From assembly GCA_965204735.1 (NCBI GenBank), contig OZ242008.1, forward strand, positions 160,001-224,000: a DNA stretch of 64,000 nt. Reading direction: 5' to 3'. This stretch comes from Longimicrobiales bacterium (lineage in GTDB: Bacteria > Gemmatimonadota > Gemmatimonadetes > Longimicrobiales > Gaopeijiaceae). This document shows positions 3,563-63,794 of the stretch, piece after piece. Positions within the stretch are counted from its first letter, which is position 1. Every line of letters starts with the position of its first letter. A model generated the notes under the pieces. That model was not told where the DNA came from and searched no databases. It saw only the letters and a program-made list of their open reading frames with translations. Made by a program: the position numbers and the translations under genes.

Positions 3563-4219
3563 CTAGACGTTGTACAGATGCCGAAACCAAGCAATGAACG
3601 CCGTTGCTGCTGGCGCATCGTGATGGAAGTATCTTGCACGGATTGCAGTACCGTAGCGCAAGCCGGGCTCCTTCTGCCATGCCAGCCATGCGTGCACTAC
3701 GGCCTTCTGAGTGTCCGTTGCCGTGAACTCTGCCCCCAATGCCGTCGCCTGATTTGTCGCAGTCCTTGCATGTGCAAGCAGCGGGTTGCCAGCCTCGACA
3801 AGGTCGGCAAGAAACTCCTCCAACGCTCCTTTCCGCAGGTTGTCAGGCATGATCCATACGCCGACTCGGGTGCCATAGTCAGGGGACTCGCCCACGAAGC
3901 CGCCCGCGGGAATCTGATCAGGAACGGGCACCCCCACCTTACTGAGACGGGACGACACTGCCGCCCAACGCCTCAACGGTTGGTTGTCGGCATCCAACAC
4001 AAATCCTGCTGAACGGCCCGTGCTGCTACGCACGCTGACAGCGATGGCGGACAGTACGCCCTTCACTCCGTCGCCGGGCGCGTTGGGAATCGGGAGCGGC
4101 GGTGGTGGATTTCTTTCACCGTAGCCGATATCGTGCCAGCGGAGCAGGTGCCGTACAGCACTCTCGTCGTCCTTTCCCTCGACCAGCAGGACGGACCGTT
4201 GATTGTCGACTGTGGTCAT
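3563..4219 (-). CDS. DUF3226 family Toprim-like protein
   Basis: LLVEGKDD and VLDAD Toprim motifs; GVWIMPDN..GALEEFL; overlaps the upstream ATPase stop by 4 nt. Confidence 0.8.
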   Translation of the reverse strand: MTTVDNQRSVLLVEGKDDESAVRHLLRWHDIGYGERNPPPPLPIPNAPGDGVKGVLSAIAVSVRSSTGRSAGFVLDADNQPLRRWAAVSSRLSKVGVPVPDQIPAGGFVGESPDYGTRVGVWIMPDNLRKGALEEFLADLVEAGNPLLAHARTATNQATALGAEFTATDTQKAVVHAWLAWQKEPGLRYGTAIRARYFHHDAPAATAFIAWFRHLYNV

Positions 4220-5313
4220 CGCAGTTCGATTTCGTGGTCGATAGCACTCTCGACGTCGGTGCTGTCAAATCCGACAGAGTGCGTCAGTGCCCGTTCTACT
4301 TTATGAACGGTAAACTCGGTCGCAAGGTCGGGGCGGGACGCAGCAAGGGAAGCGAGCCCTCGAATGCAGTCGTAGCTGTGAGTGGTGGCGAACACCTGAA
4401 TACTGGCCTTGGTGGCTTGCTCGATGACCAGTCGCCAGAGATCCTCGAGCACCGTCCAATGAAGTCCCGTGTCGATTTCATCGACCAGCAATACTCCTCC
4501 AGAGAGTTGAGTCAATGATAGAGCCAACGCAAGCAAGCGGCGCGTGCCATCGCCGTGACTGCCGATTGGAGTCCGCCGGGCCGTGTTGTGGAGTCCCAAG
4601 ACGATGTCGCCCCGGCCGTAACCGTTCGCGCTCAAGAAATGGATTGAATCCAGATTGTGTTCCACCAATTTGAGCGCATCAATTACTTCCAATTCTCGCC
4701 TCTCCAGCACCACTTGATCCCACATACGACGCATCGAATCTACACCCAGAGACGATGCAGTCACAAATTGGACAGGCGTGGTTGGCAATGCATCAACAGT
4801 TGTCCGCATTGTCCGAGTATCCAGGTGAAGCGTGCCGTCCATAGTCGCAGGAAAGAGCAGAGCATCTCCGGCGTCGGTACTCGAAACCCGCACGGCGAGC
4901 AACTCGGCATCGTCTTCGTCCTTCTCGAACAGACGGTGCTGATCGGAGTGGAGATCGCCCGTGTCTTCCTCAACGGTCACGGTCACGAACCGACCCTGGT
5001 CGCTTGACCGAATGCTGAACTCGGATCCAAGACCAAAGCGATGTCCGTACATGAACCCCGAAATATCGGCCATCCTACGTATGCGGCCTTGATACGGACG
5101 GTCGTGATCGCCAAGGTACTTGATCTCACCACGCTTGTCCGCGATCCCGCGAAGCACGTAGGGACTGCCTCCGGACGCCAAGAACTGGACTGCCTCGAGG
5201 ATTGAAGTTTTTCCGGAGTTGTTCTTGCCAACCAGCAGGTTGACTCGGGCCAAGTCGCGCAGCTCGTAGGACTTGAAGCTGCGATAGCCTTGAAGCTCCA
5301 GGTTGCGGATCAC
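4216..5313 (-). CDS. ABC-type ATPase (AAA_15/AAA_21 family)
   Basis: Walker A GKNNSGKT, signature-like GDG, Walker B LLVDEIDTGLH, H-loop ATTHS. Confidence 0.9.
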   Translation of the reverse strand: MIRNLELQGYRSFKSYELRDLARVNLLVGKNNSGKTSILEAVQFLASGGSPYVLRGIADKRGEIKYLGDHDRPYQGRIRRMADISGFMYGHRFGLGSEFSIRSSDQGRFVTVTVEEDTGDLHSDQHRLFEKDEDDAELLAVRVSSTDAGDALLFPATMDGTLHLDTRTMRTTVDALPTTPVQFVTASSLGVDSMRRMWDQVVLERRELEVIDALKLVEHNLDSIHFLSANGYGRGDIVLGLHNTARRTPIGSHGDGTRRLLALALSLTQLSGGVLLVDEIDTGLHWTVLEDLWRLVIEQATKASIQVFATTHSYDCIRGLASLAASRPDLATEFTVHKVERALTHSVGFDSTDVESAIDHEIELR

Positions 5314-14936: not shown

Positions 14937-16913
14937 ATGCTGAGGTTTGCCGAGGAGCTGCTTCTCCTCCTCATCGACGAGGACTCCGGCAGCTTGGCGT
15001 TCGTGCCCGAGCGCGACTTGAACCACGCGCTGGCCGGCGCCGCGCTCATGGACCTGGCGCACGAGAACCGGATCGACACGGACCTGAAGCAGCTGACGGT
15101 GGTCGATTCCGCGCCCCTGGGCGACGACGTGCTGGACCCGGTGCTGGCGCGCCTGGCCAAGAGCACAAAGCAGCGCGCGCCCGAGTACTGGGTGCGCCAC
15201 TTCGCGCAGGACGGCGAGCGCATCCGGGCGTCGTCGCTCCAGCGCTTGGTCGAGGCCGGCATCATTCGGTCCGCCGACGAGGGCGCGATCGAAACGACGA
15301 CCAAGGTGGCCCGGGCCAAGCGCTACCCGGCAGTGGACGGCAAGGCGGAGCAAGAGGTGCGCCTCCGCATCATGGGCGTGCTCTTCAGCGACGACGTGCC
15401 CGGGCCGCGCGACGTGGTGATCATCTGCTTGGCCGACGCCTGCGGCGTCTTCAAGGGCATGCTCGCCAAGGCGGAGTTCGAAGAGGCGCGGGAGCGGATC
15501 GATACGGTGCGTCGCCTCGACCTGATCGGCCAAGCAGTGACCCGGGCCGTGCGCGAGTCCGAGGCGGAGGAGAAGGAGACCCGCCCGCGGCTGAAGAAGC
15601 CGCCGATGGCCAAGGGGCTGCCGTTCGTCGGCAACGTCCGCGAGGCGTCGATCGACTTGGGGCGCTTCCTGGCCGAACAGTACGTGGAGCTGGGTCCCGT
15701 GTTCGAGGTTCGCATTCTGCGCAGGACGCTTCTGGTGCTGGCGGGCGAGGAGGCGAACCGCTTCGTGAACCGCCAGGGGAGGCGCTGCTTCAGCTCGAGA
15801 GAACCGTTCCAGGGGCTTGCCGAAGGTCTAAACATGCACAGGATCGTGCTGAACATGGAGGGGCAGGAGCACTTCGCGATACGCAAGGCGTTCGCCCCCG
15901 CGCTGGGTCGCCCCCGCTTCAACCAGTGCTTCGACCTGGCCAACGAAGTCGTGCACCGGCAAGTTGCCGCCCTGCCCGTGGGCCGGCCCCTGCATCCCTT
16001 GCCGTTCCTGCAGCAGGTCGTCGCCGAGCAGATGGGAAGGATTCTGACGAACCGGTCGGCCTCCGAACAGGTCGAGGACATGGCGACGATGCTCGACATC
16101 TTGCTGAAGACCAAGGTGACCAAGCAGCTGCCATGGCTGCTGTTCGCGAGCAGGTTCAAGAAGGCGAAGGCGGGCGTGGAGACCGTTGCGCACGAGATCC
16201 TCGAGGCCCATGGGCCGGGCGGGCCGTTCCACGACTCCGGCGATTTCATCAGCGACCTGATCGACCTCAACCGCCGTGACCCGCAGCTCATACCCGAGAC
16301 CGACATGAGCGGCTGGGCGATCGCTCCCTTCCTCGCGGGAATGGAGACCGTGGCCAACACGTGCGCCTTCAACCTCTACGCCGCGCTGAAGTACCCGGAG
16401 CTGAAGGATAAAGTCGTCGCGGAAGCGGACGCTTTCTTCTCCGGCGCGCCGTCGGCCAAGGGGTTGGCGGAGATGGACGTCACGCGTCGCCTGATCATGG
16501 AGTCGATGCGCATGTGGCCGGCGGCCCCCGTGCTCTTCCGGGTCGCGGCCAACTCCTTCGACTTCGCGGGCTACCACGTGTCCGCAGGCACGCCCATGTT
16601 CCTTCCGCAAGCGGCGACCCATCACCTGCCCGAGCACTTCCCCGAACCGGAGCGCTTCGATGTCGACCGGTACCTGCCGGAGCGCGCAGAGCACCGGCAG
16701 TCTCATGCATACGTTCCCTACGGCGTGGGCGTGCATCGCTGCCTGGGCGCAGGCTTCGCCGATCTCCAGACGCTGCTCATCCTGGCCGTTTTGATGAACG
16801 GCGCGGAGATGGAACTCCACCCGCGCGACTACGACCTCAAGGTCACCAACGTCCCGACGCCCAGACCCGCGAAGAACTTCAAGATCAAGGTGACGAGGCT
16901 GCGGACGGGGTGA
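14937..16913 (+). CDS. GOLPH3/Vps74 (GPP34) domain - cytochrome P450 fusion
   Basis: N-terminal FAEELLLLLIDE..LAGAALMDLA (GPP34); P450 I-helix AGMETV, ExxR (ESMR), PERF, YGVGVHRCLG heme motif. Confidence 0.85.
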   Translation: MLRFAEELLLLLIDEDSGSLAFVPERDLNHALAGAALMDLAHENRIDTDLKQLTVVDSAPLGDDVLDPVLARLAKSTKQRAPEYWVRHFAQDGERIRASSLQRLVEAGIIRSADEGAIETTTKVARAKRYPAVDGKAEQEVRLRIMGVLFSDDVPGPRDVVIICLADACGVFKGMLAKAEFEEARERIDTVRRLDLIGQAVTRAVRESEAEEKETRPRLKKPPMAKGLPFVGNVREASIDLGRFLAEQYVELGPVFEVRILRRTLLVLAGEEANRFVNRQGRRCFSSREPFQGLAEGLNMHRIVLNMEGQEHFAIRKAFAPALGRPRFNQCFDLANEVVHRQVAALPVGRPLHPLPFLQQVVAEQMGRILTNRSASEQVEDMATMLDILLKTKVTKQLPWLLFASRFKKAKAGVETVAHEILEAHGPGGPFHDSGDFISDLIDLNRRDPQLIPETDMSGWAIAPFLAGMETVANTCAFNLYAALKYPELKDKVVAEADAFFSGAPSAKGLAEMDVTRRLIMESMRMWPAAPVLFRVAANSFDFAGYHVSAGTPMFLPQAATHHLPEHFPEPERFDVDRYLPERAEHRQSHAYVPYGVGVHRCLGAGFADLQTLLILAVLMNGAEMELHPRDYDLKVTNVPTPRPAKNFKIKVTRLRTG

Positions 16914-52511: not shown

Positions 52512-55124
52512 ATGTCCAGCGTGGCCAAGGGACTTCTCGCCGGGGGATCGCTGGCCGCCGCGCTGCTGGCGACGCTGGCGGTTCAGGCGGCGGACAGGGG
52601 GCCGCGCCGTTCCGCCCCTCGCGCCGCCGTCCCGGCCGGCGCCCAGGCGGCCTCCGACTACGCGGGCGCCGAAGCCTGCCGAAGCTGCCACGCGGACCAC
52701 TTTGACGCCTGGGCGTCGTCCACCCACGGAACCGCCGGCGGCCCCCCGGGACCGGAGACGGTGATCGCCCCCTTCGGCGGTCCCCCGATCCGCTTTGCCG
52801 ACGCCGTGGTGTCGCCCCGGGTGGACGCCGACCGGTACCTCTTCGTCGTGGAGCGTCGGGGCCGTCCGCCGCTTCGCTACCAAGTCTCGGGCGTCGTCGG
52901 CCGGGGCCACATGGTGGGCGGAGGGACCCAAGGCTTCCTCTCCGCCTTTCCCGACGGCACCGAGCGCTTCCTTCCCTTCGACTGGTCCGCGGACGCCGAA
53001 GCGTGGTTCTGCAACACGGCCTTCGTGGGCGGCTTCTGGGTTCCGGGCGCGGACCGGGCGGCGCTCCGTGCCGACGCGGGATGGCTCCCGATCACCCCGG
53101 AGACGCGCCTGACCGAGTGCGGCGACTGGCCGCCCGTCCGGGTCATGGGCTCCACCCGCCGCTTCGCCAACTGCCAGAACTGCCACGGCAGCGGCGTCGA
53201 GGTCGCCTACCTTCCCGACGATCGCCGCTACGAGACCGCGATCGCGACCCTCCGGATCGACTGCGAATCGTGCCACGGTCCCGCCGCCGACCACGTGGAG
53301 CGCGCCCGCTCCGGCCTCCTCGCCTCTTCGCCCGACCTGGGCCTTCCCGCCCTGGACACCCTGGACGTCGACCAGTCCCTGGCGGTCTGCTTCCAATGCC
53401 ACGCCCTGAAGCGGTCGCTGGAGGACTCGCCGCCCCCGGACCCGTCGCCGAGCGGCCGGCCGCGCCGCCCCCCTGCGCGGTACAGCCTGGGGCTGCCCCT
53501 CGTGGGCGACTCGCCCTACCTCCCCGACGGCCGCATCCGCACCTTCGGCTACCAGCAGACCCACCGCAGCAGCGCCTGCTACCTCTCGGGCGCCATGACC
53601 TGCGTGGATTGCCACGACCCTCACTCCCAGTCCTACCGAGACCCCTTCGGCGCGCCCCTGGCCGGCCGCTGGGACGACGGCCAGTGCACCGCCTGCCACG
53701 CCAGCAAGGCCGCGGACCCGGAGTCCCACACCTTCCACCCGACCGCCTCCGACGGCGCCCGATGCGTCTCGTGCCACATGCCCTACGTCCAGCACCCGGA
53801 GCTGTCGGACGCGATCCCCTACGCCCGCTCCGACCACACGATTCCCGTCCCGCGCCCCGGCTTCGACGAGGCGGCGGGGCTGCCGTCGGCGTGCGCGGGC
53901 TGCCACCAGGACCGGACGCCGGCGGCCCTCGCCGAGCAGGTTGCGGAGTGGTGGGGGGAGCTGAGGCCGCACCGCCCGGAGGTCGCCGCGCTCTTCTCGG
54001 CGGCCTTTCCGGGCGCGGCAACTCCCGCCCGACCGCCCTCCGGCGCCCCGCCCCAGCCGACCCGCCCGGAAGACTTGGCCGCCCCCGCCCGTCCCCACGC
54101 CCCCGGCGCTTACGGCGCCCCCGCCGCCCCACCCGCCCCCTCGGCCCAGGCAACTTCCTCGGCCCAGGCAACTTCCTCGGCCCATGCCGCCCTCGCGGCT
54201 CCAGCCGCCTCCTCGGCCCAAGCCACCCTCGCGGCCCTGACCGAGGCCGCCGCCCTTGGCGAGCGCTACGCCCTTGCCAAGCTCATGGCGCTGAACGCCT
54301 GGGTCCTGGGCGCGGCCGCCTCGCCGGACCGCGTGGTCGTCCCGGCGGCCACCGCAGCGCTGACCGTCCTGGCCGGCGATCCCGACGTCGACGTCCGCGC
54401 CGTCGCCGCGGCCGCGCTTCACGCCACCCACGACGACGACCACCCGGCCCTTCACGCCCTCCTCGTCGCGCCGACGGCCCCTCCGTCCTCGACCCCCTCT
54501 CTGCCGCCCTCCACCGCTCAGTCCCGCGCCGCAGGCGTCCGCGTCCGCTGGGCCGCCGCTCTCTCCCAGTGGGCGGCGGCGCTCTCCCGCTCTCACGGCC
54601 CGGCGGCGGCCCTCCCCTTCCTGCAACGAGCGCGGCAACTCCGCCCGACCGATCCGGAGGCGCTGATCGGCCTCGCCGCAGGGCTGGCGGCGGTCGGCAA
54701 CCACGCCCAGGCCGTGGGAGTCTACCAGGACGCCCTTGGCCTCGATCCCGACCACCCGGTCGCCCTGGTCAACCTCGGGCTGGGCCTCGAGGCCCTGGGC
54801 CGCGACGCCGAAGCCGAGGCCGCCTACGACCGGGCCGCGACGGCAAGACCGAGCGAGGCTCTGGCGCACTTCAACCTGGGCAACGCCCGCTTCCGCCGCG
54901 GCGACCTGCTGGGCGCGGGCGTCGCGTACCGCGCCGCCGTCGAATCCGATCCGGGCTTGGCCCGCGCCCACTTCTACCTCGCCGTCGTCCTCGTCAACGG
55001 CGGTGGCGATCTGGAGGAAGCCCTTTCGGCCCTGTACAGCGCCGCCGAGTTCGCCCCCGACGACGAAAAGGTCCGTCGCGTTCTCCAGCAGGTGGAAGCG
55101 GCGGTGAACAGGCCGGGCGGCTAA
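52512..55124 (+). CDS. Multiheme c-type cytochrome (8 CxxCH) with C-terminal TPR repeats
   Basis: CRSCH, CQNCH, CESCH, CFQCH, CVDCH, CTACH, CVSCH, CAGCH; TPR ALVNLG/AHFNLG; signal peptide. Confidence 0.9.
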   Translation: MSSVAKGLLAGGSLAAALLATLAVQAADRGPRRSAPRAAVPAGAQAASDYAGAEACRSCHADHFDAWASSTHGTAGGPPGPETVIAPFGGPPIRFADAVVSPRVDADRYLFVVERRGRPPLRYQVSGVVGRGHMVGGGTQGFLSAFPDGTERFLPFDWSADAEAWFCNTAFVGGFWVPGADRAALRADAGWLPITPETRLTECGDWPPVRVMGSTRRFANCQNCHGSGVEVAYLPDDRRYETAIATLRIDCESCHGPAADHVERARSGLLASSPDLGLPALDTLDVDQSLAVCFQCHALKRSLEDSPPPDPSPSGRPRRPPARYSLGLPLVGDSPYLPDGRIRTFGYQQTHRSSACYLSGAMTCVDCHDPHSQSYRDPFGAPLAGRWDDGQCTACHASKAADPESHTFHPTASDGARCVSCHMPYVQHPELSDAIPYARSDHTIPVPRPGFDEAAGLPSACAGCHQDRTPAALAEQVAEWWGELRPHRPEVAALFSAAFPGAATPARPPSGAPPQPTRPEDLAAPARPHAPGAYGAPAAPPAPSAQATSSAQATSSAHAALAAPAASSAQATLAALTEAAALGERYALAKLMALNAWVLGAAASPDRVVVPAATAALTVLAGDPDVDVRAVAAAALHATHDDDHPALHALLVAPTAPPSSTPSLPPSTAQSRAAGVRVRWAAALSQWAAALSRSHGPAAALPFLQRARQLRPTDPEALIGLAAGLAAVGNHAQAVGVYQDALGLDPDHPVALVNLGLGLEALGRDAEAEAAYDRAATARPSEALAHFNLGNARFRRGDLLGAGVAYRAAVESDPGLARAHFYLAVVLVNGGGDLEEALSALYSAAEFAPDDEKVRRVLQQVEAAVNRPGG

Positions 55125-55361
55125 GGAGCGGCGCGCAGGCCTCTGCGGGCGGTGTGCCAATTTTGATATACCACGGGAGCGGCTTGCGGCGTCTCCATAT
55201 ATGTCGGCAGGAACCGACAGGCTCACGGGGGAGGACTCGCACCTTCCCGGAATTCAGAATCTCTACCAGGAGACAGCAGCATGACTTACCTCCGCAAGCT
55301 CGCCCGGCTCTTCCGTCGCGCCGTCGCGACGGTCGCCTTCGGCCAGGGCACTCCCCAGTCG
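54115..55361 (+). repeat. Left anchor repeat, copy 1 (TPR 3' end + class B promoter + MTYLRK leader)
   Basis: Near-identical to about 57355-58467. Confidence 0.9.
55154..55198 (+). promoter_or_regulatory. Class B promoter-like motif GTGCCAATTYTGATATACCACG-N10-GCGGCGTCTCCAT
   Basis: Also at 58255-58299 and, independently, at 63687-63731 with the same spacing. Confidence 0.7.
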
Positions 55362-55817
55362 GTCACGCTGAAGAGCAGGGTGGCCACGACATTCCCGACT
55401 CCGACAAACCGCTCCAACTCCCCCAGGTCACGGGTCAGAACCTTCCGGCACGGTCGTGGGCAAGACCCCGGATCACTCTGGGACAAGACCGGGCAAAGCC
55501 GCTGCTACATGGCCAACACCGGAGTCAGCGTTCTCGTAGCTGGGCTGGCATTCCTGCAACTTGGTTGTGACGCGACATCGCCGTCGCACGATTCACAACC
55601 GATAGTTGTCGAAGCCCGACCGGCTGTAACCGAGCGCGGAACACTACAGGTTCGGCTGACCAGCAGCAGAAACGCCGTTGCCGGTGTTCCAGTCGTTCTT
55701 CGCGTCTACGACCTGGCAGGAAACGTCGTGGACGAACGGAAGTTTGCTTCTCTGCAGGACGTCGCGGCAGGCGCCGTATTCACGGACGACAGCACTGAGA
55801 CGGAGGGCGAACGATGA
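55281..55817 (+). CDS. Hypothetical lipoprotein-like protein with MTYLRK leader
   Basis: GGAG RBS; internal lipobox-like VLVAGLAFLQLGC; ATGA overlap with the next gene; alternative start at 55509. Confidence 0.55.
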   Translation: MTYLRKLARLFRRAVATVAFGQGTPQSVTLKSRVATTFPTPTNRSNSPRSRVRTFRHGRGQDPGSLWDKTGQSRCYMANTGVSVLVAGLAFLQLGCDATSPSHDSQPIVVEARPAVTERGTLQVRLTSSRNAVAGVPVVLRVYDLAGNVVDERKFASLQDVAAGAVFTDDSTETEGER

Positions 55818-56407
55818 AGCCATGGGCCAGGGCCGTATCCGCCGTTCTGTTGATCACTACGGCAACCCTCCCCGCATCGTTGGTCGCTGTAGAATCCGCT
55901 TCCCTCAATCGTCCTCTGGACGTAACTGTCGAGCTGTCGGCTCTGGAATGCCGCGCAGACGGCAACGTTGTCTTCAGCGCAACAGGCTCCTCTGGAGGCT
56001 TCGCGGCCGAAGCGGTTCGTGACGCCATCCCTTCCTGCGAGGTGGACTGGACGGCGGCCGTAACGGGTTGTACGACGTGCTTCACATCCGTCATGTTCCT
56101 CGTGGGCGGCGCATGGGCTGTTCGAGCTGCACACTTGGGCATGAGGCTCGCCATTGCCATGACCAGAGGCCAAGCCCGGGCAGCGATGTTCGCTGCCGGG
56201 TTCACCTTCGCTGGCGTCTTGTCCCAGCTCTTGCCTGGATGTCGCGGGTGCTTTTCTGCAACGTGCGTGCGTGAGTTGGCTCGAGGCGTGATGGAGGCGA
56301 TTGAGCAGTTGTTCACGTCTCCCCTCTGGTCGTGCGCGAACGCGGACGTCAATGCCGAGTTGGAGTGCCTGATTGGGATCAACGACGATGGCGAGATCGA
56401 ATACTAG
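55814..56407 (+). CDS. Secreted Cys-rich (9 Cys) hydrophobic hairpin protein, bacteriocin-like candidate
   Basis: Signal peptide; GCTTCF...hydrophobic core...GCRGCF. Confidence 0.65.
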   Translation: MKPWARAVSAVLLITTATLPASLVAVESASLNRPLDVTVELSALECRADGNVVFSATGSSGGFAAEAVRDAIPSCEVDWTAAVTGCTTCFTSVMFLVGGAWAVRAAHLGMRLAIAMTRGQARAAMFAAGFTFAGVLSQLLPGCRGCFSATCVRELARGVMEAIEQLFTSPLWSCANADVNAELECLIGINDDGEIEY

Positions 56408-56627
56408 CACTGGCACCGTCGAGAAGGTCGCTAGGTATCGGCGCCGAGCTCGATGCGCGGTGATCGTTGCGGTAGCGATGGCGACGGTGGGACCGGTCGT
56501 GGACCCGTCCCTGGAAGCGATAGTGTCGGCGGTGACGGCGTGGGCCGCCGGCACTATCATCTGGCTGATCGCGGACATCTCCAAGGCGGTCGTTGACTGC
56601 GCCGACGGGCAGGACTGCGAGGACTAG
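56388..56627 (+). CDS. Small 2-TM protein (immunity-like candidate)
   Basis: Two hydrophobic segments; overlaps the end of the Cys-rich gene. Confidence 0.5.
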   Translation: MARSNTSTGTVEKVARYRRRARCAVIVAVAMATVGPVVDPSLEAIVSAVTAWAAGTIIWLIADISKAVVDCADGQDCED

Positions 56628-56710
56628 GTTGGCAACCGCCAAATGGGAAGTGGACGGGACCACCGTCACGGAAAAATGGCTCGAATGCTTTGAACCGGAG
56701 TGGTAGAGAA

Positions 56711-57271
56711 ATGATGAAGCTACTTGAGCGTCAAGTCCCGCTCTGGCTGATCTTGGTCTGCTTCGTCACCATGGCGACGACACTCGTGGTGGCGGCTTGG
56801 TTGTCTTCACGACCGGCCGACGAACCGACCGTCGTGAACGTCGTGGACGTCGTCTGGACGGACGGACGGCTGGAGATGCCCAACCCGGAAGCGTTCACGG
56901 AAGGGCACGACGGCCCTGTCGCTTTTCGCATCATTGAGGACGGAGAGGTCGTCATGGAGTTCGCAGGGGCGAACTTGGCGGAAGCACGCCAGAAGCTCGA
57001 GCAAGCATCCATGGAATACCTCGAGGAGATGGCCGGCCGACCGGATGCGTCTCAGGCGCTGCGGGCTCTTGTAGAGCTGAGAGAAAGCCTCCCGTCCGAT
57101 TCTTCCATCAGGCTTATGACGGCCGACCAACTGACTCGTTTGCTGGAGACGATGGAACCGCTGTTGGCGGCTGGTTATGCCGACATGCCGGCGGAGGAGC
57201 AGGCCAAGGTGCTCTCGGGCGTGAAGGAAGCCGTGAACGCCGTGAAGTCGGAGGTGGCGAAGGACTCCTGA
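56711..57271 (+). CDS. Membrane-anchored hypothetical protein (DEPTVV family, paralog of 58387-59061)
   Basis: SRPADEPTVV..DVVW..DGPV..ESLP...I.LMT..TRLLE..EPLLAA. Confidence 0.75.
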   Translation: MMKLLERQVPLWLILVCFVTMATTLVVAAWLSSRPADEPTVVNVVDVVWTDGRLEMPNPEAFTEGHDGPVAFRIIEDGEVVMEFAGANLAEARQKLEQASMEYLEEMAGRPDASQALRALVELRESLPSDSSIRLMTADQLTRLLETMEPLLAAGYADMPAEEQAKVLSGVKEAVNAVKSEVAKDS

Positions 57272-57345
57272 CTCCGGGACCGACGGACCGGCCTGGCGAG
57301 CAGGCGGTCACGCTCCCGAGGGCTGGTCCAGTTCGTTATCCACGC
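57223..57345 (+). repeat. Right anchor repeat, copy 1 (about 120 bp)
   Basis: gaaggaagccgtgaacgccgtgaagtcggagg..ggtccagttcgtt..ccacgc recurs at 60967-61086. Confidence 0.9.
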
Positions 57346-57354
57346 ACGCGCGCA

Positions 57355-58225
57355 GCGCCCCTGCCGCCCCACCCGCCCTCGCGGTCCAGGCAATGCCTTC
57401 GGCCCAGGGCGGCCCTCTCGGCCCAAAGCCACCCTCGCCGCCCCGACCGAGGCCGCCGCCCTTGGCGAGCGCCACGCCCTTGCCAAGCTCATGGCGCCTG
57501 AACGCCTGGGTCCTGGGCACGGCCGCCTCGCCGGACCGGGCGGTCGTCCCGGCGGCCACCGCAGTGCCCTGACCGTCCTGACCGGCGATCCCGACATCGA
57601 CGTCCGCGCGGTCGCCGCGGCTGCGCTTCACGCCACCCACGACGACGACCACCCGGCCCTTCGCCCCCTCCTAGCCGCGCCAGCGGCCCCTCCGTCCTCG
57701 GCCCCCTCTCCGCTGCCCTCCACCGCAACGAGCGCGGCAACTCCGCCCGACCGATCCGGAGGTGCTGATCGGCCTCGCCGCAGGGCTGGCGGCGGCCGGC
57801 AACCATGCCCAGGCCGTGGGAGTCTACAGGACGCCCTTGGCCTCGATCCCGACCACCCGGTCGCCCTGGTCAACCTCGGGCTGGGCCTCGAGGCCCTGGG
57901 CCGCGACGCCGAAGCCGAGGCCGCCTACGATCGGGCCGCGACGGCAAGACCGAGCGAGGCTCTGGCGCACTTCAACCTGGGCAACGCCCGCTTCCGCCGC
58001 GGCGACCTGCTGGGCGCGGGCGTCGCGTACCGGGCCGCCGTCGAATCCGATCCGGGCTTGGCCCGCGCCCACTTCTACCTCGCCGTCGTCCTCGTCAACG
58101 GCGGCGGCGATCTGGAGGAAGCCCTTTCGGCCCTCTACAGCGCCGCCGAGTTCGCCCCCGACGACGAAGAGGTCCGTCGCGTTCTCCAGCAGGTGGAAGC
58201 GGCGGTGAACAGGCCGGGCGGCTAA
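57355..58225 (+). pseudogene. Degraded duplicate of the 3' part of the multiheme-TPR gene
   Basis: Near-identical to 54115-55124 with deletions and frameshifts (e.g. gtctacagg vs gtctaccagg). Confidence 0.9.
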
Positions 58226-58254
58226 GGAGCGGCGCGCAGGCCTCTGCGGGCGGT

Positions 58255-58299
58255 GTGCCAATTTTGATATACCACGGGAGCGGCTTGCGGCGTCTCCAT
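58255..58299 (+). promoter_or_regulatory. Class B promoter-like motif, copy 2
   Basis: Identical to 55154-55198 (part of the duplication). Confidence 0.65.
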
Positions 58300-58386
58300 A
58301 TATGTCGGCAGGAACCGACAGGCTCGCGTCGCGAGGAGGCTCGCACCCTTCCCGGAATTCAGAATCCTCTACCAGGAGACAGCAGC

Positions 58387-59061
58387 ATGACTTACCTTCG
58401 CAAGCTCGCCCGGCTCTTCCGTCGCGCCGTCGCGACGGTCGCCTTCGGCCAGGGCGCTCCCCAGTCGCAAGTCCGGCCGAACCAAGCCCCGGTCCGCCGC
58501 GGCTTCTCCCACCGCGGCCTCGCCCTGGTGCCGCTGCTCAGGTTCAGGCATGGACTGACGGTGGGCGTCATAGCGATCGCGATGTCCGCCAGCGGCTGCA
58601 CGGACGCGTTTTCGCGGCCGGTCGATGAGCCGACCGTCGTTGACGTCGTCTGGAGGAACGGCCGTGTGGAACTCGCCGATCCAGAAGTCGCGCTGGAGCG
58701 GCCCGACGGCCCTGTCAGGGTTCGCTTCATCAAGGACGACGAGGTAGTCAAGGAATACGCCGCCGGAAGCTTGGCGCAGGCACGGGCGGAAATGGAGCGT
58801 GACGTCCGGAACAAGTGGAAGGATATGGCCAGGCGCCCGGGCGCATTGCCCGAAACCAGGGCGTGGGCAGAGCTGATGGAGAGCCTCCCTACCGAGTCTG
58901 CCATCATGCTCATGACGGACGAAGAACGGACGCGCCTGTTGGAGGCGGTGGAGCCGTTGCTGGCGGCTAGTCGCCGCGACATGAGGGCGGAGGAGCGTGC
59001 CAGGATGCTGTCCGACGTTAGAGAAACCGTGAACGCCTTGATGTCGGAGGTGGCAAAATGA
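58387..59061 (+). CDS. Lipoprotein-like DEPTVV family protein with MTYLRK leader
   Basis: Same first 23 aa as 55281; lipobox-like ASGC; body paralogous to 56711-57271. Confidence 0.7.
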   Translation: MTYLRKLARLFRRAVATVAFGQGAPQSQVRPNQAPVRRGFSHRGLALVPLLRFRHGLTVGVIAIAMSASGCTDAFSRPVDEPTVVDVVWRNGRVELADPEVALERPDGPVRVRFIKDDEVVKEYAAGSLAQARAEMERDVRNKWKDMARRPGALPETRAWAELMESLPTESAIMLMTDEERTRLLEAVEPLLAASRRDMRAEERARMLSDVRETVNALMSEVAK

Positions 59062-59534
59062 TGATGGCACGTGGCTTGGTCTTCATCCTTCTCCTCCTCG
59101 GCGCGGCCTTCGCTGCCGAGCCAGCGGAAGCCGCCGTAGCCCCGGACGCCGAAGTCACTTCGGTCAACACCTGTCCGATCCCCCAACGCAACTGCTCGAG
59201 GTCGGAGGCATGGGAAATGGGCATCAACTGCGGGGCATGCTTCGTCGAAGTGTTCCTGTGCCCGTTCGCGATCGGGGCCGTCTACATAGCTCCGGACCCT
59301 GCGTCAAAAGCGGCTGCGATCCTTGCCGCGCTCATCACGTGTCTGGGTCCATTCCAGTCGTGCACGCAGTGTGTCAGGGCGGCCCACCGCTGCGGCGACG
59401 AAGCCAAGGAGCGGGCGGCGCGAGAGCACCTGCGGGCGACCATGGAACGCATTCGTCGTCTGGAGGAGATGCTGATCCCAGGCAATGGTAACGAGTGCGA
59501 AGAGAGCGCTCCTGATTGCCATACTCCCCACTGA
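59058..59534 (+). CDS. Secreted Cys-rich (11 Cys) hairpin protein, bacteriocin-like candidate
   Basis: Signal peptide (..GAAFA/AEA); CxxC-x6-C...C-x6-CxxC; ATGA overlap; GGAGG RBS. Confidence 0.7.
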   Translation: MMMARGLVFILLLLGAAFAAEPAEAAVAPDAEVTSVNTCPIPQRNCSRSEAWEMGINCGACFVEVFLCPFAIGAVYIAPDPASKAAAILAALITCLGPFQSCTQCVRAAHRCGDEAKERAAREHLRATMERIRRLEEMLIPGNGNECEESAPDCHTPH

Positions 59535-59548
59535 GCGGAGAGGCTAAC

Positions 59549-59794
59549 GTGATAAACTTTCTGGTCACTTTTGGCCGATGGTGGCTTGGGTTTGGATGCG
59601 GCTGGTGTTTCGCCATGACCTACGGCCCCTGGACGGTCTTGGTCGCTGTTCCAATGACGGTGTTGGTAGTGTGCACCGCGTTGTGGTTCTGCGGCTTTCG
59701 CGGGGCCGTGTTTGCCCTCTTCGGGGGCGATACGCCGACGCTTGTTCGTCCGGTTCCGGCCTGGCTCCTGCGAATCGCCCCATGGCTCCGATAG
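59549..59794 (+). CDS. Small Trp-rich 2-TM protein (immunity-like candidate)
   Basis: GGAGAGG RBS, GTG start, hydrophobic 81 aa. Confidence 0.6.
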   Translation: MINFLVTFGRWWLGFGCGWCFAMTYGPWTVLVAVPMTVLVVCTALWFCGFRGAVFALFGGDTPTLVRPVPAWLLRIAPWLR

Positions 59795-59804
59795 GTCCCG
59801 GCCC

Positions 59805-60980
59805 GTGAGTCGCGACTGTCCAGGTCCGTGCGTCGGTTTCGTGCCGATCTGGGCAGTCGCGACCATCGCAGCAACCCTGCTCGCTTCTTCCGCAGAGGCC
59901 CAATGGCGGCTGGGTCCGCCGGACTTGGTGATCGGCGAGGAAGCAGGGACGCTGTTCGACGACATAGCGGATGTGTTCGTCCGCGACGCTCGCATCTACG
60001 TGACGGACCGAGGCGCCCGCACGATTCGAGCGTTCGCTCGGGCGACCGGGCGCTTGGTCGCAACGGCGGGGCGTGAAGGCGAGGGCCCTGGCGAGTTTCG
60101 GTTTGTGGGCTGGGTAGACGACTGCGGTACCGACGCAATCGTCGCGTCGGACCACGGCTTGGACCGTGTGTCCGTCTTTACCCTGGATCTGGACCATGTT
60201 CGGACGTTCGCTCTGGGCGCCACGCGACTCGCTGCGATCCAGTGCGTTGGTTCGCGCGGATTCGTAGGAATCAAACGAAACCCCGATCCCCTGCTCCACC
60301 TTCGGGGGGAAATCCCAATGGAGCCGTACGTCGGTACGGTCGATCTCGTCCTGTTGGGGCCAGACGGTTCCCTCCAGCGGACGATCGGAAGATTCCCTGC
60401 TGAAGACCGATTCCGTGTGGCCATGCCCGACGGCCGGGGCTACAGCATACTCCCCCTCGTGTGGGGTCTGCGGCCGGTCTTCGAGTCCTTCCAGCAGGGG
60501 TTTGTCTTCGGAACAGGAGACTCGTGGTCGCTGGCCCGCTACGACGCGGAGGGCAACGTCTTGGACACGCTGGCGCTGGACCAGAGCCGTCTCGCCGTTG
60601 CGCGTGCCCATGTCGACGAGCATGCCCGGCGAGCGGTCGCGGCCAGCCGCAACCCCGAACGCGATCGACGGTTCTACGCGGACTACCCGTTCCCTTCCCA
60701 CTTCCCCGCATACACCGATGTCGTCGCGTCGAAGAGCGGCTTCACCTGGGTAGAACAGTTCTCCGCACCTTACCCGGAAGCTGACCCTCACTGGAAGGTC
60801 TTCGCACCCGACCGCGCCTTGGCGGCTACTGCGGACTTGCCGAGAGGCTTCGAACTCATGTGGGTTGGGGACACGCAAGTCGCGGGAGTCGTGAGAGACG
60901 AACTGGGCGTCCAGAGCATGGAGCTGCGCCCCATCGTGCGCGTGGCGGAAAACGACCTATCGGCTCGAAGGAAGCCGTGA
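59805..60980 (+). CDS. 6-bladed beta-propeller protein, secreted
   Basis: Signal ..SAEA; AGREGEGPGEF; PL.WG..PV and RDELGVQ motifs resemble 300-1469; start uncertain. Confidence 0.8.
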   Translation: MSRDCPGPCVGFVPIWAVATIAATLLASSAEAQWRLGPPDLVIGEEAGTLFDDIADVFVRDARIYVTDRGARTIRAFARATGRLVATAGREGEGPGEFRFVGWVDDCGTDAIVASDHGLDRVSVFTLDLDHVRTFALGATRLAAIQCVGSRGFVGIKRNPDPLLHLRGEIPMEPYVGTVDLVLLGPDGSLQRTIGRFPAEDRFRVAMPDGRGYSILPLVWGLRPVFESFQQGFVFGTGDSWSLARYDAEGNVLDTLALDQSRLAVARAHVDEHARRAVAASRNPERDRRFYADYPFPSHFPAYTDVVASKSGFTWVEQFSAPYPEADPHWKVFAPDRALAATADLPRGFELMWVGDTQVAGVVRDELGVQSMELRPIVRVAENDLSARRKP

Positions 60981-61086
60981 ACGCCGTGAAGTCGGAGGCG
61001 GCGAAGGACTCCTGACTCCGGGCCGAGGGACCGGCCGGCGAGCAGGCGGTCGCGCTTCCGAGGGCTGGTCCAGTTCGTTTCCACGC
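60967..61086 (+). repeat. Right anchor repeat, copy 2 (relic of DEPTVV gene end EAVNAVKSEAAKDS*)
   Basis: Near-identical to 57223-57345. Confidence 0.9.
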
Positions 61087-61111
61087 GCCGAAGCAGTAGA
61101 TTGCAGGTGCC

Positions 61112-61588
61112 ATGACCCGAATCCGCGTCGCCGTCGCCCTGGTACCGCTCCTGTGCGGGGCGTGCCACGCCTACGCGCCGGCGTCTCCTTCCGCCGTCGG
61201 ACCCGGCGACCAGGTCCGCGCCCTCCTCACCGCCGAGCAGCTCGACCGCTTCCGGGGGGTGCTGCCGACCGACGCCCGGAGCGTGGAAGGCACAGTGCTC
61301 GAAGCGGTCCCGGGCGAGCTGCTGCTGGAAGTCCCCCTTCTCGTCCAAGCCGAAGGGCTGCGCGTCGAGTCGCTCCGGCAGCGGCTTCGCATCCCCGAGA
61401 CGGGATTGGCCGACTTGGAGTTCCGCACCCTCGCCCGGGGCCGAACCTGGGCCCTGGCCGGCGCTGCTGCCGCGCTGGTGGGGTACGTGACCTGGGACCA
61501 ATGGTTCTCCGACGCCAAGCGCGACCCCCAAGTGCTGCCCGGCCCGGTCAACGAGTTCTGGCGGGTCGTGGTCCCGGTTCCGCCGTGA
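61112..61588 (+). CDS. Hypothetical lipoprotein
   Basis: LCGAC lipobox-like motif; C-terminal TM helix. Confidence 0.65.
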   Translation: MTRIRVAVALVPLLCGACHAYAPASPSAVGPGDQVRALLTAEQLDRFRGVLPTDARSVEGTVLEAVPGELLLEVPLLVQAEGLRVESLRQRLRIPETGLADLEFRTLARGRTWALAGAAAALVGYVTWDQWFSDAKRDPQVLPGPVNEFWRVVVPVPP

Positions 61589-62229: not shown

Positions 62230-63633
62230 ATGGACGCTGCTTCGCCAATCGACTCGACCGCCGACACGCCGAAGGCAACCGAGAGACCACCCACGCTCGC
62301 CGAGCTGGAACGCTTCCGAGCCGCCGACCCCGCCCTCCTGCGGGAGTGGCTCGCGGAGGTGGAGCCACGCCTGATCGGGACGATAGCGGGCTGGGCCGCC
62401 GATCCCGCCCACGCGGACGACCTGCTGCAGGAGGTCCAGGTCCGCATCTACCGGCGGCGGGCAGGCTTTTCCGGCTCCGGCACGTTCGCGCGGTGGGCGG
62501 ACAAGGTCTGCCTGAACATCTGTCGCACCGATCAGCGCATGAGGGCGCGCAATCGGGCGGTGCCGATCGACCAGTGCCCGGAGATCGCGGACGACGCGCC
62601 CGGTCCCGCGGAGCAGTTCCAGAGCCGCCTGCGGGCCGCGACGGTTCGCGAGGCCGTCGAACGGCTGGACGAGAGGGAGCGGGAAGCGGTCGTCGCCTGT
62701 CACCTCGAGGAGCTGCCGACGGCCGAGGTCGCCCGAACGATGAAGACGACCGAACAGGTCGTCAGAACCCTGGTCCACCGGGGCTTCCGGAAGCTCAGGA
62801 GCATGGACGACGTGACGGAGTTCATGATCGGCTCCAACAGCCGCGCGCCACAAGCGTCCTCCGTTCTCGCGCTCCAATCGGACTGCCGGCTTCGGACTCG
62901 GTTGCGGACGGGCGTGCGGGCCGGGGCCGTCCACGGCTTGGTGGAAGGCGTCCACTTCGCCTCCGGCTGGAGCGACCTGCGGGAGTTGGCGCTCCGCTTC
63001 AGTGGTTCGCCCGCGTTCGTGGACCCCTCGCATCCCTCGGCGGAGGAACGACGAGACCCAGCGGCGTGGTTGCAGCAGGCGGTGCCGGAGTGTCCTCTGA
63101 TCCGCTACGGGAAGGGCGGCGCCAAGTCGCCGGCCACGGACGCCGAGTTCGTCGCGCGTCTGACGCCCGGCGACAACGACAGCCTCGTGGCGATCGGCAC
63201 TGCGGTGCTTCTGGCCGCCAACTACGACTTGGTGCGCAACCTGCTGGCGAACCTCGGGAAGGTCGCTCCCGTCGAAGCTCGAGAGCTTCTGGGGAGCGTC
63301 GTTCGCCGCACGGTGTTCCCGTGCACGGTCGGGGCACTGGCGACGAGCTGGGGAACCAGCGTGGCGATGGTAGGGCGGCGGTGCCGGGCGTGGGGACTGC
63401 CGAAGCCCAAGAGACTCGTCTTGCTGGCACGCCTCTTTCACGTGCAGAGGCTGGCCGAATGGAGCGGTCGGCCGCCGGGCGCGATCGCCCTCGCCCTGGG
63501 CTACTCGGCCTACTCCAACTACGCGCGGTGCGTGCGAAGGGAGATGGAGTGCACGTCGTCGGAGGTCGCCCAACGCGGCGGAGCGGCCTACGTGGCCGCG
63601 AGACTGATCGACGAGGTTGGGGACTCCCGATGA
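62230..63633 (+). CDS. ECF sigma factor - AraC-like HTH fusion protein
   Basis: ADDLLQEV..FSGSGTFARW..CLN (region 2), EVARTM..VRTLVHRGFRKL (region 4), then TVGALA..GLPKPKRL..ALALGYSAYSNY. Confidence 0.8.
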   Translation: MDAASPIDSTADTPKATERPPTLAELERFRAADPALLREWLAEVEPRLIGTIAGWAADPAHADDLLQEVQVRIYRRRAGFSGSGTFARWADKVCLNICRTDQRMRARNRAVPIDQCPEIADDAPGPAEQFQSRLRAATVREAVERLDEREREAVVACHLEELPTAEVARTMKTTEQVVRTLVHRGFRKLRSMDDVTEFMIGSNSRAPQASSVLALQSDCRLRTRLRTGVRAGAVHGLVEGVHFASGWSDLRELALRFSGSPAFVDPSHPSAEERRDPAAWLQQAVPECPLIRYGKGGAKSPATDAEFVARLTPGDNDSLVAIGTAVLLAANYDLVRNLLANLGKVAPVEARELLGSVVRRTVFPCTVGALATSWGTSVAMVGRRCRAWGLPKPKRLVLLARLFHVQRLAEWSGRPPGAIALALGYSAYSNYARCVRREMECTSSEVAQRGGAAYVAARLIDEVGDSR

Positions 63634-63686: not shown

Positions 63687-63731
63687 GTGCCAATTCTGAT
63701 ATACCACGCAGCGGGCGGGCGGCGTCTCCAT
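63687..63731 (+). promoter_or_regulatory. Class B promoter-like motif, independent copy
   Basis: GTGCCAATTCTGATATACCACG-N10-GCGGCGTCTCCAT; the flanks are unrelated to 55154. Confidence 0.7.
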
Positions 63732-63794
63732 CTACAAGACCCAATGCCCCCGTTTGGAAGTACGCGTTCCCCGCAACAAGGATCCCTGACTGAC

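Follow-up and report, generated by a model that had tools for sequence, protein, structure and literature searches.

What is the role of two small, exported, cysteine-rich proteins, each encoded ahead of a still smaller membrane protein, in the genome of a Longimicrobiales bacterium? The genes lie in a 64,000-nucleotide stretch of DNA (hereafter the window), bases 160001-224000 of a 4.14-Mb genome assembled as a single contig of ~70% G+C (GenBank GCA_965204735.1, contig OZ242008.1). A preliminary description had proposed the two proteins, which we name CysA and CysB, as one new bacteriocin family, with the two membrane proteins, here TM-A and TM-B, as cognate immunity. In the genomes compared, the downstream open reading frame (ORF) with two transmembrane (TM) segments is not conserved; the conserved partner is a lipoprotein, X, encoded upstream. 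This lipoprotein had been missed, as had the absence of the surrounding island from two genomes and its two tandem units. We tentatively read the locus as a toxin-plus-protection (conflict) module, with the Cys-rich protein as the toxin and the 2-TM module as the protector, and our confidence in this reading stays short of even.

Cysteine ladder and predicted fold

The ORFs of CysA and CysB and their cysteine spacings are exactly as first described, apart from six cysteines that had been left out: C46, C174 and C185 of CysA and C39, C147 and C154 of CysB. The cysteines of CysA are at positions 46, 75, 86, 89, 143, 146, 151, 174 and 185, in the layout C-x10-CxxC, helix, loop, helix, CxxC-x4-C, third helix and C-x10-C tail. 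Those of CysB are at positions 39, 46, 58, 61, 68, 95, 102, 105, 112, 147 and 154 and include the ladder C46-x11-C58xxC61-x6-C68 ... C95-x6-C102xxC105-x6-C112. As had been noted, the first CxxC is followed by phenylalanine in both proteins, and CxxCH occurs in neither. A Shine-Dalgarno-like GGAGG lies 7-9 nucleotides ahead of each ATG, and G+C content differs between codon positions in a coding-like order (GC3 > GC1 > GC2). None of the five rival minus-strand ORFs overlapping the two genes was found in a collection of 15 billion proteins. The N-termini read MKPWARAVS... in CysA and MMMARGLVF... in CysB, and the Sec signal of each was called from features of the sequence only. In the NCBI-source record of the genome, CysA is represented only by a piece of 38 residues (P0006); gene calls from further contigs of this species give its full 197 residues.

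Two lines of indirect evidence support the proposal that CysB forms a helical hairpin stapled by nested disulfides. First, the AlphaFold2 model of CysB, built on a six-row alignment, has a predicted local distance difference test score (pLDDT) above 90 for residues ~45-135 and places helices at 48-77, 81-112 and 115-139, that is, a hairpin and a third helix. Second, cysteines are lost in mirror pairs only. We tabulated cysteine losses in 25 sequences, 24 of which hold the whole domain. All six hairpin cysteines are kept in 22 of these 24, and the losses are confined to the other two. In P0046, positions 68 and 95 are lost together. In a copy from genome G192 (G192a), which aligns to CysB without gaps between 46 and 112, position 58 is lost with 105 and 68 with 95, and 61 with 102 and 46 with 112 are kept. 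If cysteines were lost independently, the chance of losing whole mirror pairs would be 4/28 and 6/70, or ~0.012 jointly by our arithmetic. Because the cysteines are lost as mirror pairs, we predict the nested pairs 46-112, 58-105, 61-102 and 68-95. Disulfide formation in the envelope is plausible, since genes for VKOR and a DsbA-like thioredoxin-fold protein are neighbours in the genome (3227806-3228750, at 3.228 Mb); the two genes are likely an envelope disulfide-forming system.

Structure comparison gave no functional information about CysB, since its matches are generic three-helix bundles and the Z range is uninformative for helical bundles. Foldseek found no PDB entry at E ≤ 0.001 (best E 0.11), and in the wide VIA-align search the best match (Z 12.7) was a designed bundle of three helices, ahead of MIT-, spectrin- and Dps-like helices.

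The model of CysA is weak (mean pLDDT 51.7), with values of 70-83 across residues ~80-170 and helices, in the order seen in CysB, at 87-110, 118-143 and 149-168. All nine CysA cysteines are present in a relative of 67% identity. Among 401 genomes of the phylum, CysA gave chance-level matches alone (E ≥ 0.0011), the window's own copy aside. CysA thus seems to have near relatives only, yet it has the same layout as CysB. The treatment of the two as one family did not hold: BLASTP gives E 58, and the hhalign probability was 4.6% and later 8.4% (8% rounded). The hhalign alignment did set the C-x10/11-CxxC of the two proteins in register. CysA and CysB share what looks like one layout, and their homology is unproven.

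Distribution and architectures of the CysB family

The CysB family is very rare in public data. A HMMER search of 1,835,955,588 representative proteins gave 29 matches at E ≤ 1e-3, 15 at E ≤ 1e-10 and five at E ≤ 1e-30, and a word-indexed search of 5.8 billion clusters returned only the species' own cluster. A locus search of genome and metagenome contigs with CysB found nothing, the ESM Atlas gave no usable match, and the best hit of a PDB sequence profile search had E 0.52. Within the taxonomic family, 9 of 314 genomes carry a member, including 8 of the 53 of genus g3; the other three genomes of the window's own genus have none. A 20-sequence profile run on the 401 phylum genomes matched six, namely the window's genome and 5 of 70 of the same taxonomic family, against 0 of 331 elsewhere. 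The family has no description in Pfam, NCBIfam, PHROGs or PADLOC; the literature was not searched for it. When 20 members were compared with Pfam, no domain was found above noise. The preliminary description had named a match to a known non-toxic family as one that would speak against its proposal; none was found above noise in the four databases.

Six cysteines (C46, C58, C61, C102, C105 and C112) are invariant among 20 sequences of 23-32% identity to CysB, and C68 and C95 are kept in at least 90% of this alignment. Every member has one more cysteine at a variable distance of 6-17 residues ahead of C46, and many have an extra C-terminal Cys...Pro...Cys loop. A P-x-x-A-x-A site of signal peptidase I type is conserved ahead of the domain.

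Four architectures were recognized. In the full-length copies read from g3 and in many metagenome members, the Cys domain is preceded by a 2-TM extension and a signal-like segment. CysB, P0031 and P0040 have a signal peptide alone. In P0038, a lipobox stands straight before a polar, non-hydrophobic hairpin. In P0032 and P0037, an X-like lipoprotein domain is fused straight to the Cys domain.

A stapled bundle of this kind might serve as a stable ligand, on the cell surface or set free: a secreted signal, the alternative already raised in the preliminary description, or an adhesion or surface protein. The very stable disulfide-stapled fold, the conserved short C-terminal Cys-x-Pro-x-Cys loop of many members and the long Gly/Ser-rich tails of P0031 and P0029 would all suit such a ligand. 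Against it, no receptor, kinase or regulator is linked to the genes in the island, and the gene at 62230, encoding an extracytoplasmic function (ECF) sigma factor with a helix-turn-helix (HTH) domain, lies outside it, with homologues in genomes G442 and G441 located apart from the cytochrome-lipoprotein junction. We consider this explanation very improbable.

The upstream lipoprotein X

Three genes of the X family are found in the window (X0, X1 and X2; Table 1), and the stop codon of X0 overlaps the start of CysA. X0 can be aligned with the family across its lipobox and its core, 'PxxxRV..G.VV', and is without the helical C-terminal half. Its residues 1-27 are 96% identical to those of X2, and the first 27 codons are common to both genes. 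Both X0 (55281-55508) and X2 (58387-58554) have a long, basic, near-identical N-terminal extension (MTYLRKLARLFRR...) before the lipoprotein signal, which may be a 5′ leader rather than coding sequence. No match to the X family was found in Pfam, NCBIfam, PADLOC or PHROGs.

An X profile matched 8 of the 53 g3 genomes, and in six of them (G354, G431, G324, G426, G411 and G130) X stands directly before the CysB-family gene; in G434 an insertion sequence separates the two. In G245 (L060:923-1935), an X gene overlaps (ATGA) the gene of a third exported, Cys-rich, hydrophobic protein, of 182 residues with 11 cysteines, which is unrelated to CysA and CysB and adjoins a transposase; a second X gene of this genome stands alone. 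Given the fusion, the stop-start overlap and the co-occurrence, X and the Cys domain probably work together in the periplasm. The predicted complex of X2 with CysB had a median score of 0.09, a value that speaks neither for nor against binding.

Two other roles for the lipoprotein were weighed and rejected. A spanin pair does not suit a locus with no phage lysis genes and the wrong gene order, and X is too large for an o-spanin. An anti-sigma sensor does not suit a protein with no cytoplasmic signalling domain.

The small membrane proteins TM-A and TM-B

The preliminary description placed an unrelated 2-TM ORF of about 80 residues after each Cys gene. The two ORFs stand as coding sequences and are mutually unrelated; their starts had to be revised to 56388 and 59549. 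TM-A is, by its homologues, apparently a real gene, and TM-B probably is one. The hydrophobic segments of TM-A span residues 20-42 and 42-64. A paralogue of 90% identity lies at genome positions 1732869-1733105, directly 3′ of an aconitase-like gene (named from sequence), and the same-genus genome G442 has a homologue of 44% identity in an unrelated neighbourhood and a remnant of 108 nucleotides. In these three extra copies (genome 1732866-1733140; G442 L043:4012-4251; remnant L042:4298-4405), similarity starts within the last 12-18 codons of CysA and stops at the stop codon of TM-A, and no Cys gene precedes. The orphan copies are inserted after unrelated housekeeping genes and behave as a tiny mobile gene unit.

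TM-B has GGAGAGG six nucleotides ahead of its GTG and was called on Logan/ENA contigs only. In a variant, 15 of the 81 aligned positions differ by our count, mostly by exchange of one hydrophobic residue for another, and the frame and the four cysteines are kept. The CGWC (a CxxC) and the C-x5-C of TM-B sit in hydrophobic segments, and the protein could be redox-active in itself.

The expected co-occurrence of Cys proteins with a small membrane gene was not borne out, TM-B having no match in the three other genomes of its genus and TM-A none outside its own genus among 301 genomes of the taxonomic family. We also considered whether TM-A and TM-B are the split-off N-terminal 2-TM extension of the CysB relatives. 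This was rejected: the hhalign probability is 0.9%, and neither protein is in the top 30 when a hidden Markov model (HMM) of six extensions is run on the full set of 36,387 ORFs in the six reading frames of the genome.

Accessory island and tandem units

The genes at 55.2-61 kb have a G+C content of ~0.61-0.66, compared with ~0.70-0.75 in their surroundings. In two genomes of the same genus, G440 and G442, at most ~27 bases separate the cytochrome-TPR gene (matched up to ~55096-55102 of the query) from the next gene, a homologue of that at 61112. Since these genomes have an island-free junction, ~55125-61097 is an insertion. Public runs that hold the island are labelled sponge and marine metagenomes in 16 of 20 listed rows, from six studies; no RNA run is among the runs listed. 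Contigs from four runs formed too clonal a set of strain variants for a codon-position test: among the 40 differences listed of 79, a single one falls within CysA, and CysB and TM-B have none.

Repeat comparison shows that the island consists of two tandem units with common flanks and unrelated interiors. The 5′ flank repeat, 54100-55361, recurs at 57355-58467 with 85-100% identity and comprises the 3′ end of the TPR gene, an intergenic stretch with a 48-nucleotide motif and codons 1-27 of X. The 3′ flank repeat, the X 3′ end and 43 nucleotides, is found at 57218-57337 and again at 60962-61079 (95% identity; families D6 and D13), and these are its only two copies genome-wide. The interior of unit 1 is X0-CysA-TM-A-X1, and that of unit 2 is X2-CysB-TM-B-propeller-(X remnant). 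The beta-propeller-like protein has a weak match to DUF5128 (E 8e-4, below the cut-off) and many distant paralogues in the genome. Its gene starts at GTG 59805 by the gene calls, so that the second operon is compact and free of overlap there. The propeller appears to be island cargo and may or may not belong to the module. Within the cytochrome-TPR gene, 18-nucleotide tandem repeats (54097-54290) encode a linker rich in Ala, Pro and Ser, part of which is copied into unit 2.

With up to three mismatches allowed, the core of the 48-nucleotide motif, GTGCCAATTNTGATATACCACG (22 nucleotides), occurs only four times in the 4.14-Mb genome, and the control not at all. Two copies precede the X operons, and one follows the ECF-sigma/HTH gene, ahead of an exported ORF at the window end. 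The fourth (genome 4089905; L035:5906) lies between an S14 ribosomal protein gene and a 75-residue membrane ORF with a GCRCSACGC cluster; an ATPase-like ORF, named by eye, lies near it (L035:9871-11229). With just four matches to the core, the motif was dropped as a general promoter element, and no consensus sigma-70, sigma-54 or ECF promoter was readable in it by eye.

Table 1. Coordinates of the island and its genes and repeats, in positions of the window
Feature	Position	Strand	Basis or remark
Multihaem cytochrome-TPR gene	52512-55124	+	Pfam TPR and cytochrome c domains
Cytochrome-TPR 3′ end, left flank of unit 1	54100-55124	+	Repeated at 57355-58225, 85-99% identity (families D1, D2, D3, D5, D7, D11)
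Accessory low-G+C island, ~6 kb	55125-61097	+	Without counterpart in two same-genus genomes
48-nucleotide intergenic motif, copy 1	55154-55201	+	Copy 2 at 58255-58302, 100%; third at 63687-63734, 81% (family D9)
X0, truncated X lipoprotein, 178 residues	55281-55817	+	Lipobox-like LQLGC after internal start 55509
CysA, exported protein, 197 residues, nine Cys	55814-56407	+	Open frame, ribosome-binding site, codon G+C
TM-A, 79 residues, 2 TM, basic N-terminus	56388-56627	+	Gene call P0017, ATG; full ORF 56373-56627
X1, 193 residues, signal-anchor, no lipobox Cys	56690-57271	+	55% identity to X2, E 7e-49
Right flank of unit 1	57272-57337	+	With X 3′ end, repeated at 60962-61079
Duplicated cytochrome-TPR 3′ fragment, left flank of unit 2	57355-58225	+	Repeat comparison
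TPR-only fragment ORF, 244 residues	57491-58225	+	Pfam: TPR alone
X2, lipoprotein, 224 residues, lipobox-like SASGC	58387-59061	+	Stop overlaps CysB start (ATGA)
CysB, exported protein, 158 residues, AEA/A cleavage-type site	59058-59534	+	Predicted three-helix bundle, Cys ladder on first two helices
TM-B, hydrophobic, 81 residues, four conserved Cys (CGWC, C-x5-C)	59549-59794	+	GTG start; full ORF 59516-59794
Beta-propeller-like exported protein, 391 residues	59805-60980	+	GTG start by gene calls; full ORF 59712-60980
X-gene 3′ remnant and right flank of unit 2	60962-61079	+	D6 and D13, 95% identity to 57218-57337

Decay is frequent among the relatives. The CysB-family copy of G130 ends after the first cysteines, beside a VapBC-type pair (antitoxin-like and PIN-like ORFs, named from sequence), and that of G133 is truncated; G434 and G192 hold fragments or divergent copies between transposase genes. 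The island location, the association with insertion sequences and a toxin-antitoxin pair and the patchy spread would also suit envelope protection carried on mobile DNA, which would alter or block surface or periplasmic entry (superinfection exclusion, or resistance to phages or toxins) and attack no other cell. All parts would remain in the producer's envelope, and pairs of a lipoprotein with an inner-membrane protein are a known phage-exclusion layout. We regard this explanation as improbable: there is no PADLOC or PHROGs match above noise and no phage gene in or beside the island, and the orphan TM-A copies with CysA remnants would be left unexplained.

Comparison with known systems

Glycocins (sublancin, glycocin F, thermoglycocin) are peptides of ~40 residues from Gram-positive bacteria. 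One account describes helix-loop-helix molecules with nested disulfides and cysteines seven residues apart in each helix, some with an additional disulfide loop at the C-terminus (PMC12457901), and they thereby provide a published precedent for a bacteriocin with nested disulfides. CysB resembles them in the C-x6-C spacing of its pairs 61-102 and 68-95, and many members of its family end in a small Cys...Cys loop. Glycocins are, however, S/O-glycosylated by a dedicated glycosyltransferase, and their leader is usually cut by a C39-peptidase transporter, whereas here a mature protein of ~130 residues has four predicted nested pairs, a third helix, a Sec-type signal and a lipoprotein partner. No glycosyltransferase, C39 peptidase or ABC transporter was found by Pfam among the 13 + 23 ORFs of the window, and the earlier statement that neither a modifying enzyme (glycosyltransferase or radical-SAM) nor a peptidase-ABC exporter is present is borne out in the same set.

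According to a preprint, the precursor of halocin C8 is processed into two products, immunity protein from its N-terminal part and a Cys-rich, hydrophobic, exported toxin from its C-terminal part (bioRxiv 10.64898/2026.07.27.741052), a precedent for the form with a fused protector. The sister-genus CysB relatives read have a comparable order, with an N-terminal 2-TM part, the P-x-x-A-x-A site and the Cys domain. Halocin C8 differs in its twin-arginine translocation (Tat) signal; CysA and CysB have Sec-type signals without a twin-arginine motif and another Cys pattern, and their cleavage is only inferred. Neither TIGR04449 nor PF22862 (Hac8_like_N) matched CysA, CysB or three relatives in NCBIfam (E ≤ 0.1), nor any of 20 relatives in Pfam (E ≤ 0.05). 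No homology was found to glycocins, to halocin C8 or to any toxin family.

In pore-forming colicins, a hydrophobic helical hairpin enters the membrane, and a small multi-pass membrane immunity protein is encoded alongside. The hydrophobic hairpin and the small membrane protein next door are reminiscent of this; here, however, there is no colicin pore domain by Pfam, no receptor or translocation domain and no lysis gene, and the predicted hairpin is stapled and partly hydrophobic. Polymorphic toxin loci, such as those of contact-dependent inhibition (CDI), Rhs and the SitA lipoprotein toxins of myxobacteria, have kept flanks, swapped interiors, leftover 3′ ends and orphan immunity genes. Flanks, swapped interiors, leftover 3′ ends and orphan protector candidates are also found here, but no large delivery protein or recognisable toxin domain, and the conserved element is a lipoprotein of ~150 residues. 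In alpha-hairpinins and the twin-CX3C/CX9C (CHCH) proteins, likewise, two helices run antiparallel and are held by two nested disulfides from mirror-spaced cysteine pairs. They are eukaryotic and have CX3C or CX9C spacing and two pairs, in contrast to the x2-then-x6 spacing and the four predicted pairs of the bacterial, periplasmic proteins described here, to which they are unrelated in sequence. A copper-storage or other Cys-rich metal-binding bundle was likewise sought, and no Pfam or NCBIfam profile matched at E ≤ 0.1.

The closest kinds are disulfide-stapled hairpin antimicrobials and polymorphic toxin cassettes. The present module differs from both in size, four predicted nested pairs, third helix, Sec export in a presumed diderm and obligatory lipoprotein partner.

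Proposed toxin and protector, or envelope complex

Because no homology gives a function, we infer a mechanism from the anatomy of the proteins and the behaviour of the genomes. In the toxin-plus-protection reading, the Cys-rich proteins would act as antagonistic toxins directed at the envelope or membrane, from which the producer would be shielded by the small membrane partner. The Cys protein would be exported by Sec and cleaved at the conserved P-x-x-A-x-A site. The VKOR/DsbA-like pair would oxidize it to form the disulfides 46-112, 58-105, 61-102 and 68-95, and the hydrophobic tip of the hairpin would engage the membrane. The 2-TM partner, which has its own gene here but is fused N-terminally in the sister-genus relatives read, would neutralise the Cys protein in the producer. 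X would act physically with the Cys domain, as a carrier, a tether or a second protector. The host is presumably diderm, to judge from its lipoboxes.

Such a module fits the genomic pattern: an accessory island, unrelated interiors swapped between kept flanks, an orphan TM-A with the end of CysA, and frequent inactivation. It would also fit the use of X as one marker gene before at least three unrelated Cys-rich exported proteins. A more specific version, which we think possible though rather doubtful, is that these are polymorphic envelope toxins of diderms: three-helix bundles of ~130 residues with four nested disulfides, always accompanied by a dedicated lipoprotein and subject to cassette exchange between kept flanks, whose protector would lie downstream or be fused in front and freed by signal-peptidase cleavage.

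Several observations weigh against toxicity. No toxin, bacteriocin or immunity family in Pfam, NCBIfam, PHROGs or PADLOC rose above noise. The sole match to a profile named for a toxin was to Ssp4 (NF053808, a type VI secretion system effector), with 15.7 bits against a cut-off of 300 (E 0.0069; CysB residues 48-122). Pfam recognized no exporter, lysis gene or secretion system in the 36 ORFs of the window. By Kyte-Doolittle analysis with a 19-residue window, helix 1 of CysB is the only TM-like one of the four hairpin helices, helix 2 of CysB and both CysA helices being below TM-like hydrophobicity, and the hairpin of P0038 is not hydrophobic at all. The CysB core has nine conserved cysteines, an odd number that would also suit a redox or metal site. 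The protector is no better conserved: the TM-A profile matched 2 of 301 genomes of the taxonomic family, both of its own genus, TM-A has no similarity to TM-B, and in the HMM search both are unrelated to the N-terminal extension of the relatives. The orphan TM-A copies could be merely a small mobile gene. The fusion of the upstream lipoprotein to its partner is more typical of proteins that work together than of a toxin and its antidote. Finally, many CysB members are tethered to membrane or lipid, through the N-terminal 2-TM extension, the lipobox of P0038 or the fusion to X, and this sits poorly with a freely diffusing bacteriocin.

In the non-toxic alternative, the Cys domain would be a three-helix bundle of the periplasm, anchored at the membrane or partly inserted in it, with lipoprotein X as its working partner. 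The CxxC motifs would serve redox buffering or sensing, or the binding of soft metals (Cu(I), Hg or Cd, for example), and the 2-TM protein would anchor the complex or help in its assembly. The two CxxC (58/61 and 102/105) face each other at one level of the predicted hairpin; with the odd number of conserved cysteines, the anchoring of members in the producer's envelope in four ways, the X-Cys fusions and the polar, soluble-looking hairpin of P0038, this would suit such a complex. TM-B keeps a CxxC, and the island lies directly 3′ of a multihaem cytochrome gene. The absence of the island from G440 and G442, however, argues that the cytochrome is an insertion site and not a kept partner. No copper-storage (DUF326), Mer, CopZ, DsbD/CcdA or other metal or redox family was matched in Pfam or NCBIfam at E ≤ 0.1, and the unreplaced loss of mirror pairs fits structural disulfides better than a metal site, since losing two ligands would break such a site. 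Interchangeable, unrelated Cys proteins behind X and frequent decay would be unusual for a housekeeping function. We consider this complex somewhat unlikely.

Other features of the window

Three further loci of the window lie apart from the island. At 3563-5313 (minus strand), in a stretch of lower G+C, a DUF3226 gene and, after it, an AAA_21/AAA_15 ATPase gene ('AbiEii-like') form a pair that is possibly a two-gene defence system; the ATPase-like ORF near the fourth motif copy looked similar by eye. In a single ORF at 14937-16913, which adjoins a sulfotransferase gene, a cytochrome P450 is joined to a GPP34 (Golgi phosphoprotein 3-like) domain. At 62230-63633, an ECF-type sigma factor (regions 2 and 4) carries a fused AraC-type HTH_18 domain at its C-terminus.

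Implications

If the toxin reading is true, the module would represent an undescribed family of disulfide-laddered antimicrobials with a lipoprotein partner, from a little-studied marine lineage of high G+C. If the polymorphic-toxin version is true, the halocin-C8 logic of one precursor for toxin plus immunity would have arisen independently in bacteria. Even if non-toxic, CysB and its relatives would offer a clean example from nature of a helical hairpin spanned by four nested disulfides, with pairwise loss of cysteines, and the conserved lipoprotein partner, with its Rosetta-stone fusions, would have a directly testable role. A scaffold this small and this stable would also be attractive to protein engineers and could help to explain competition in host-associated communities.

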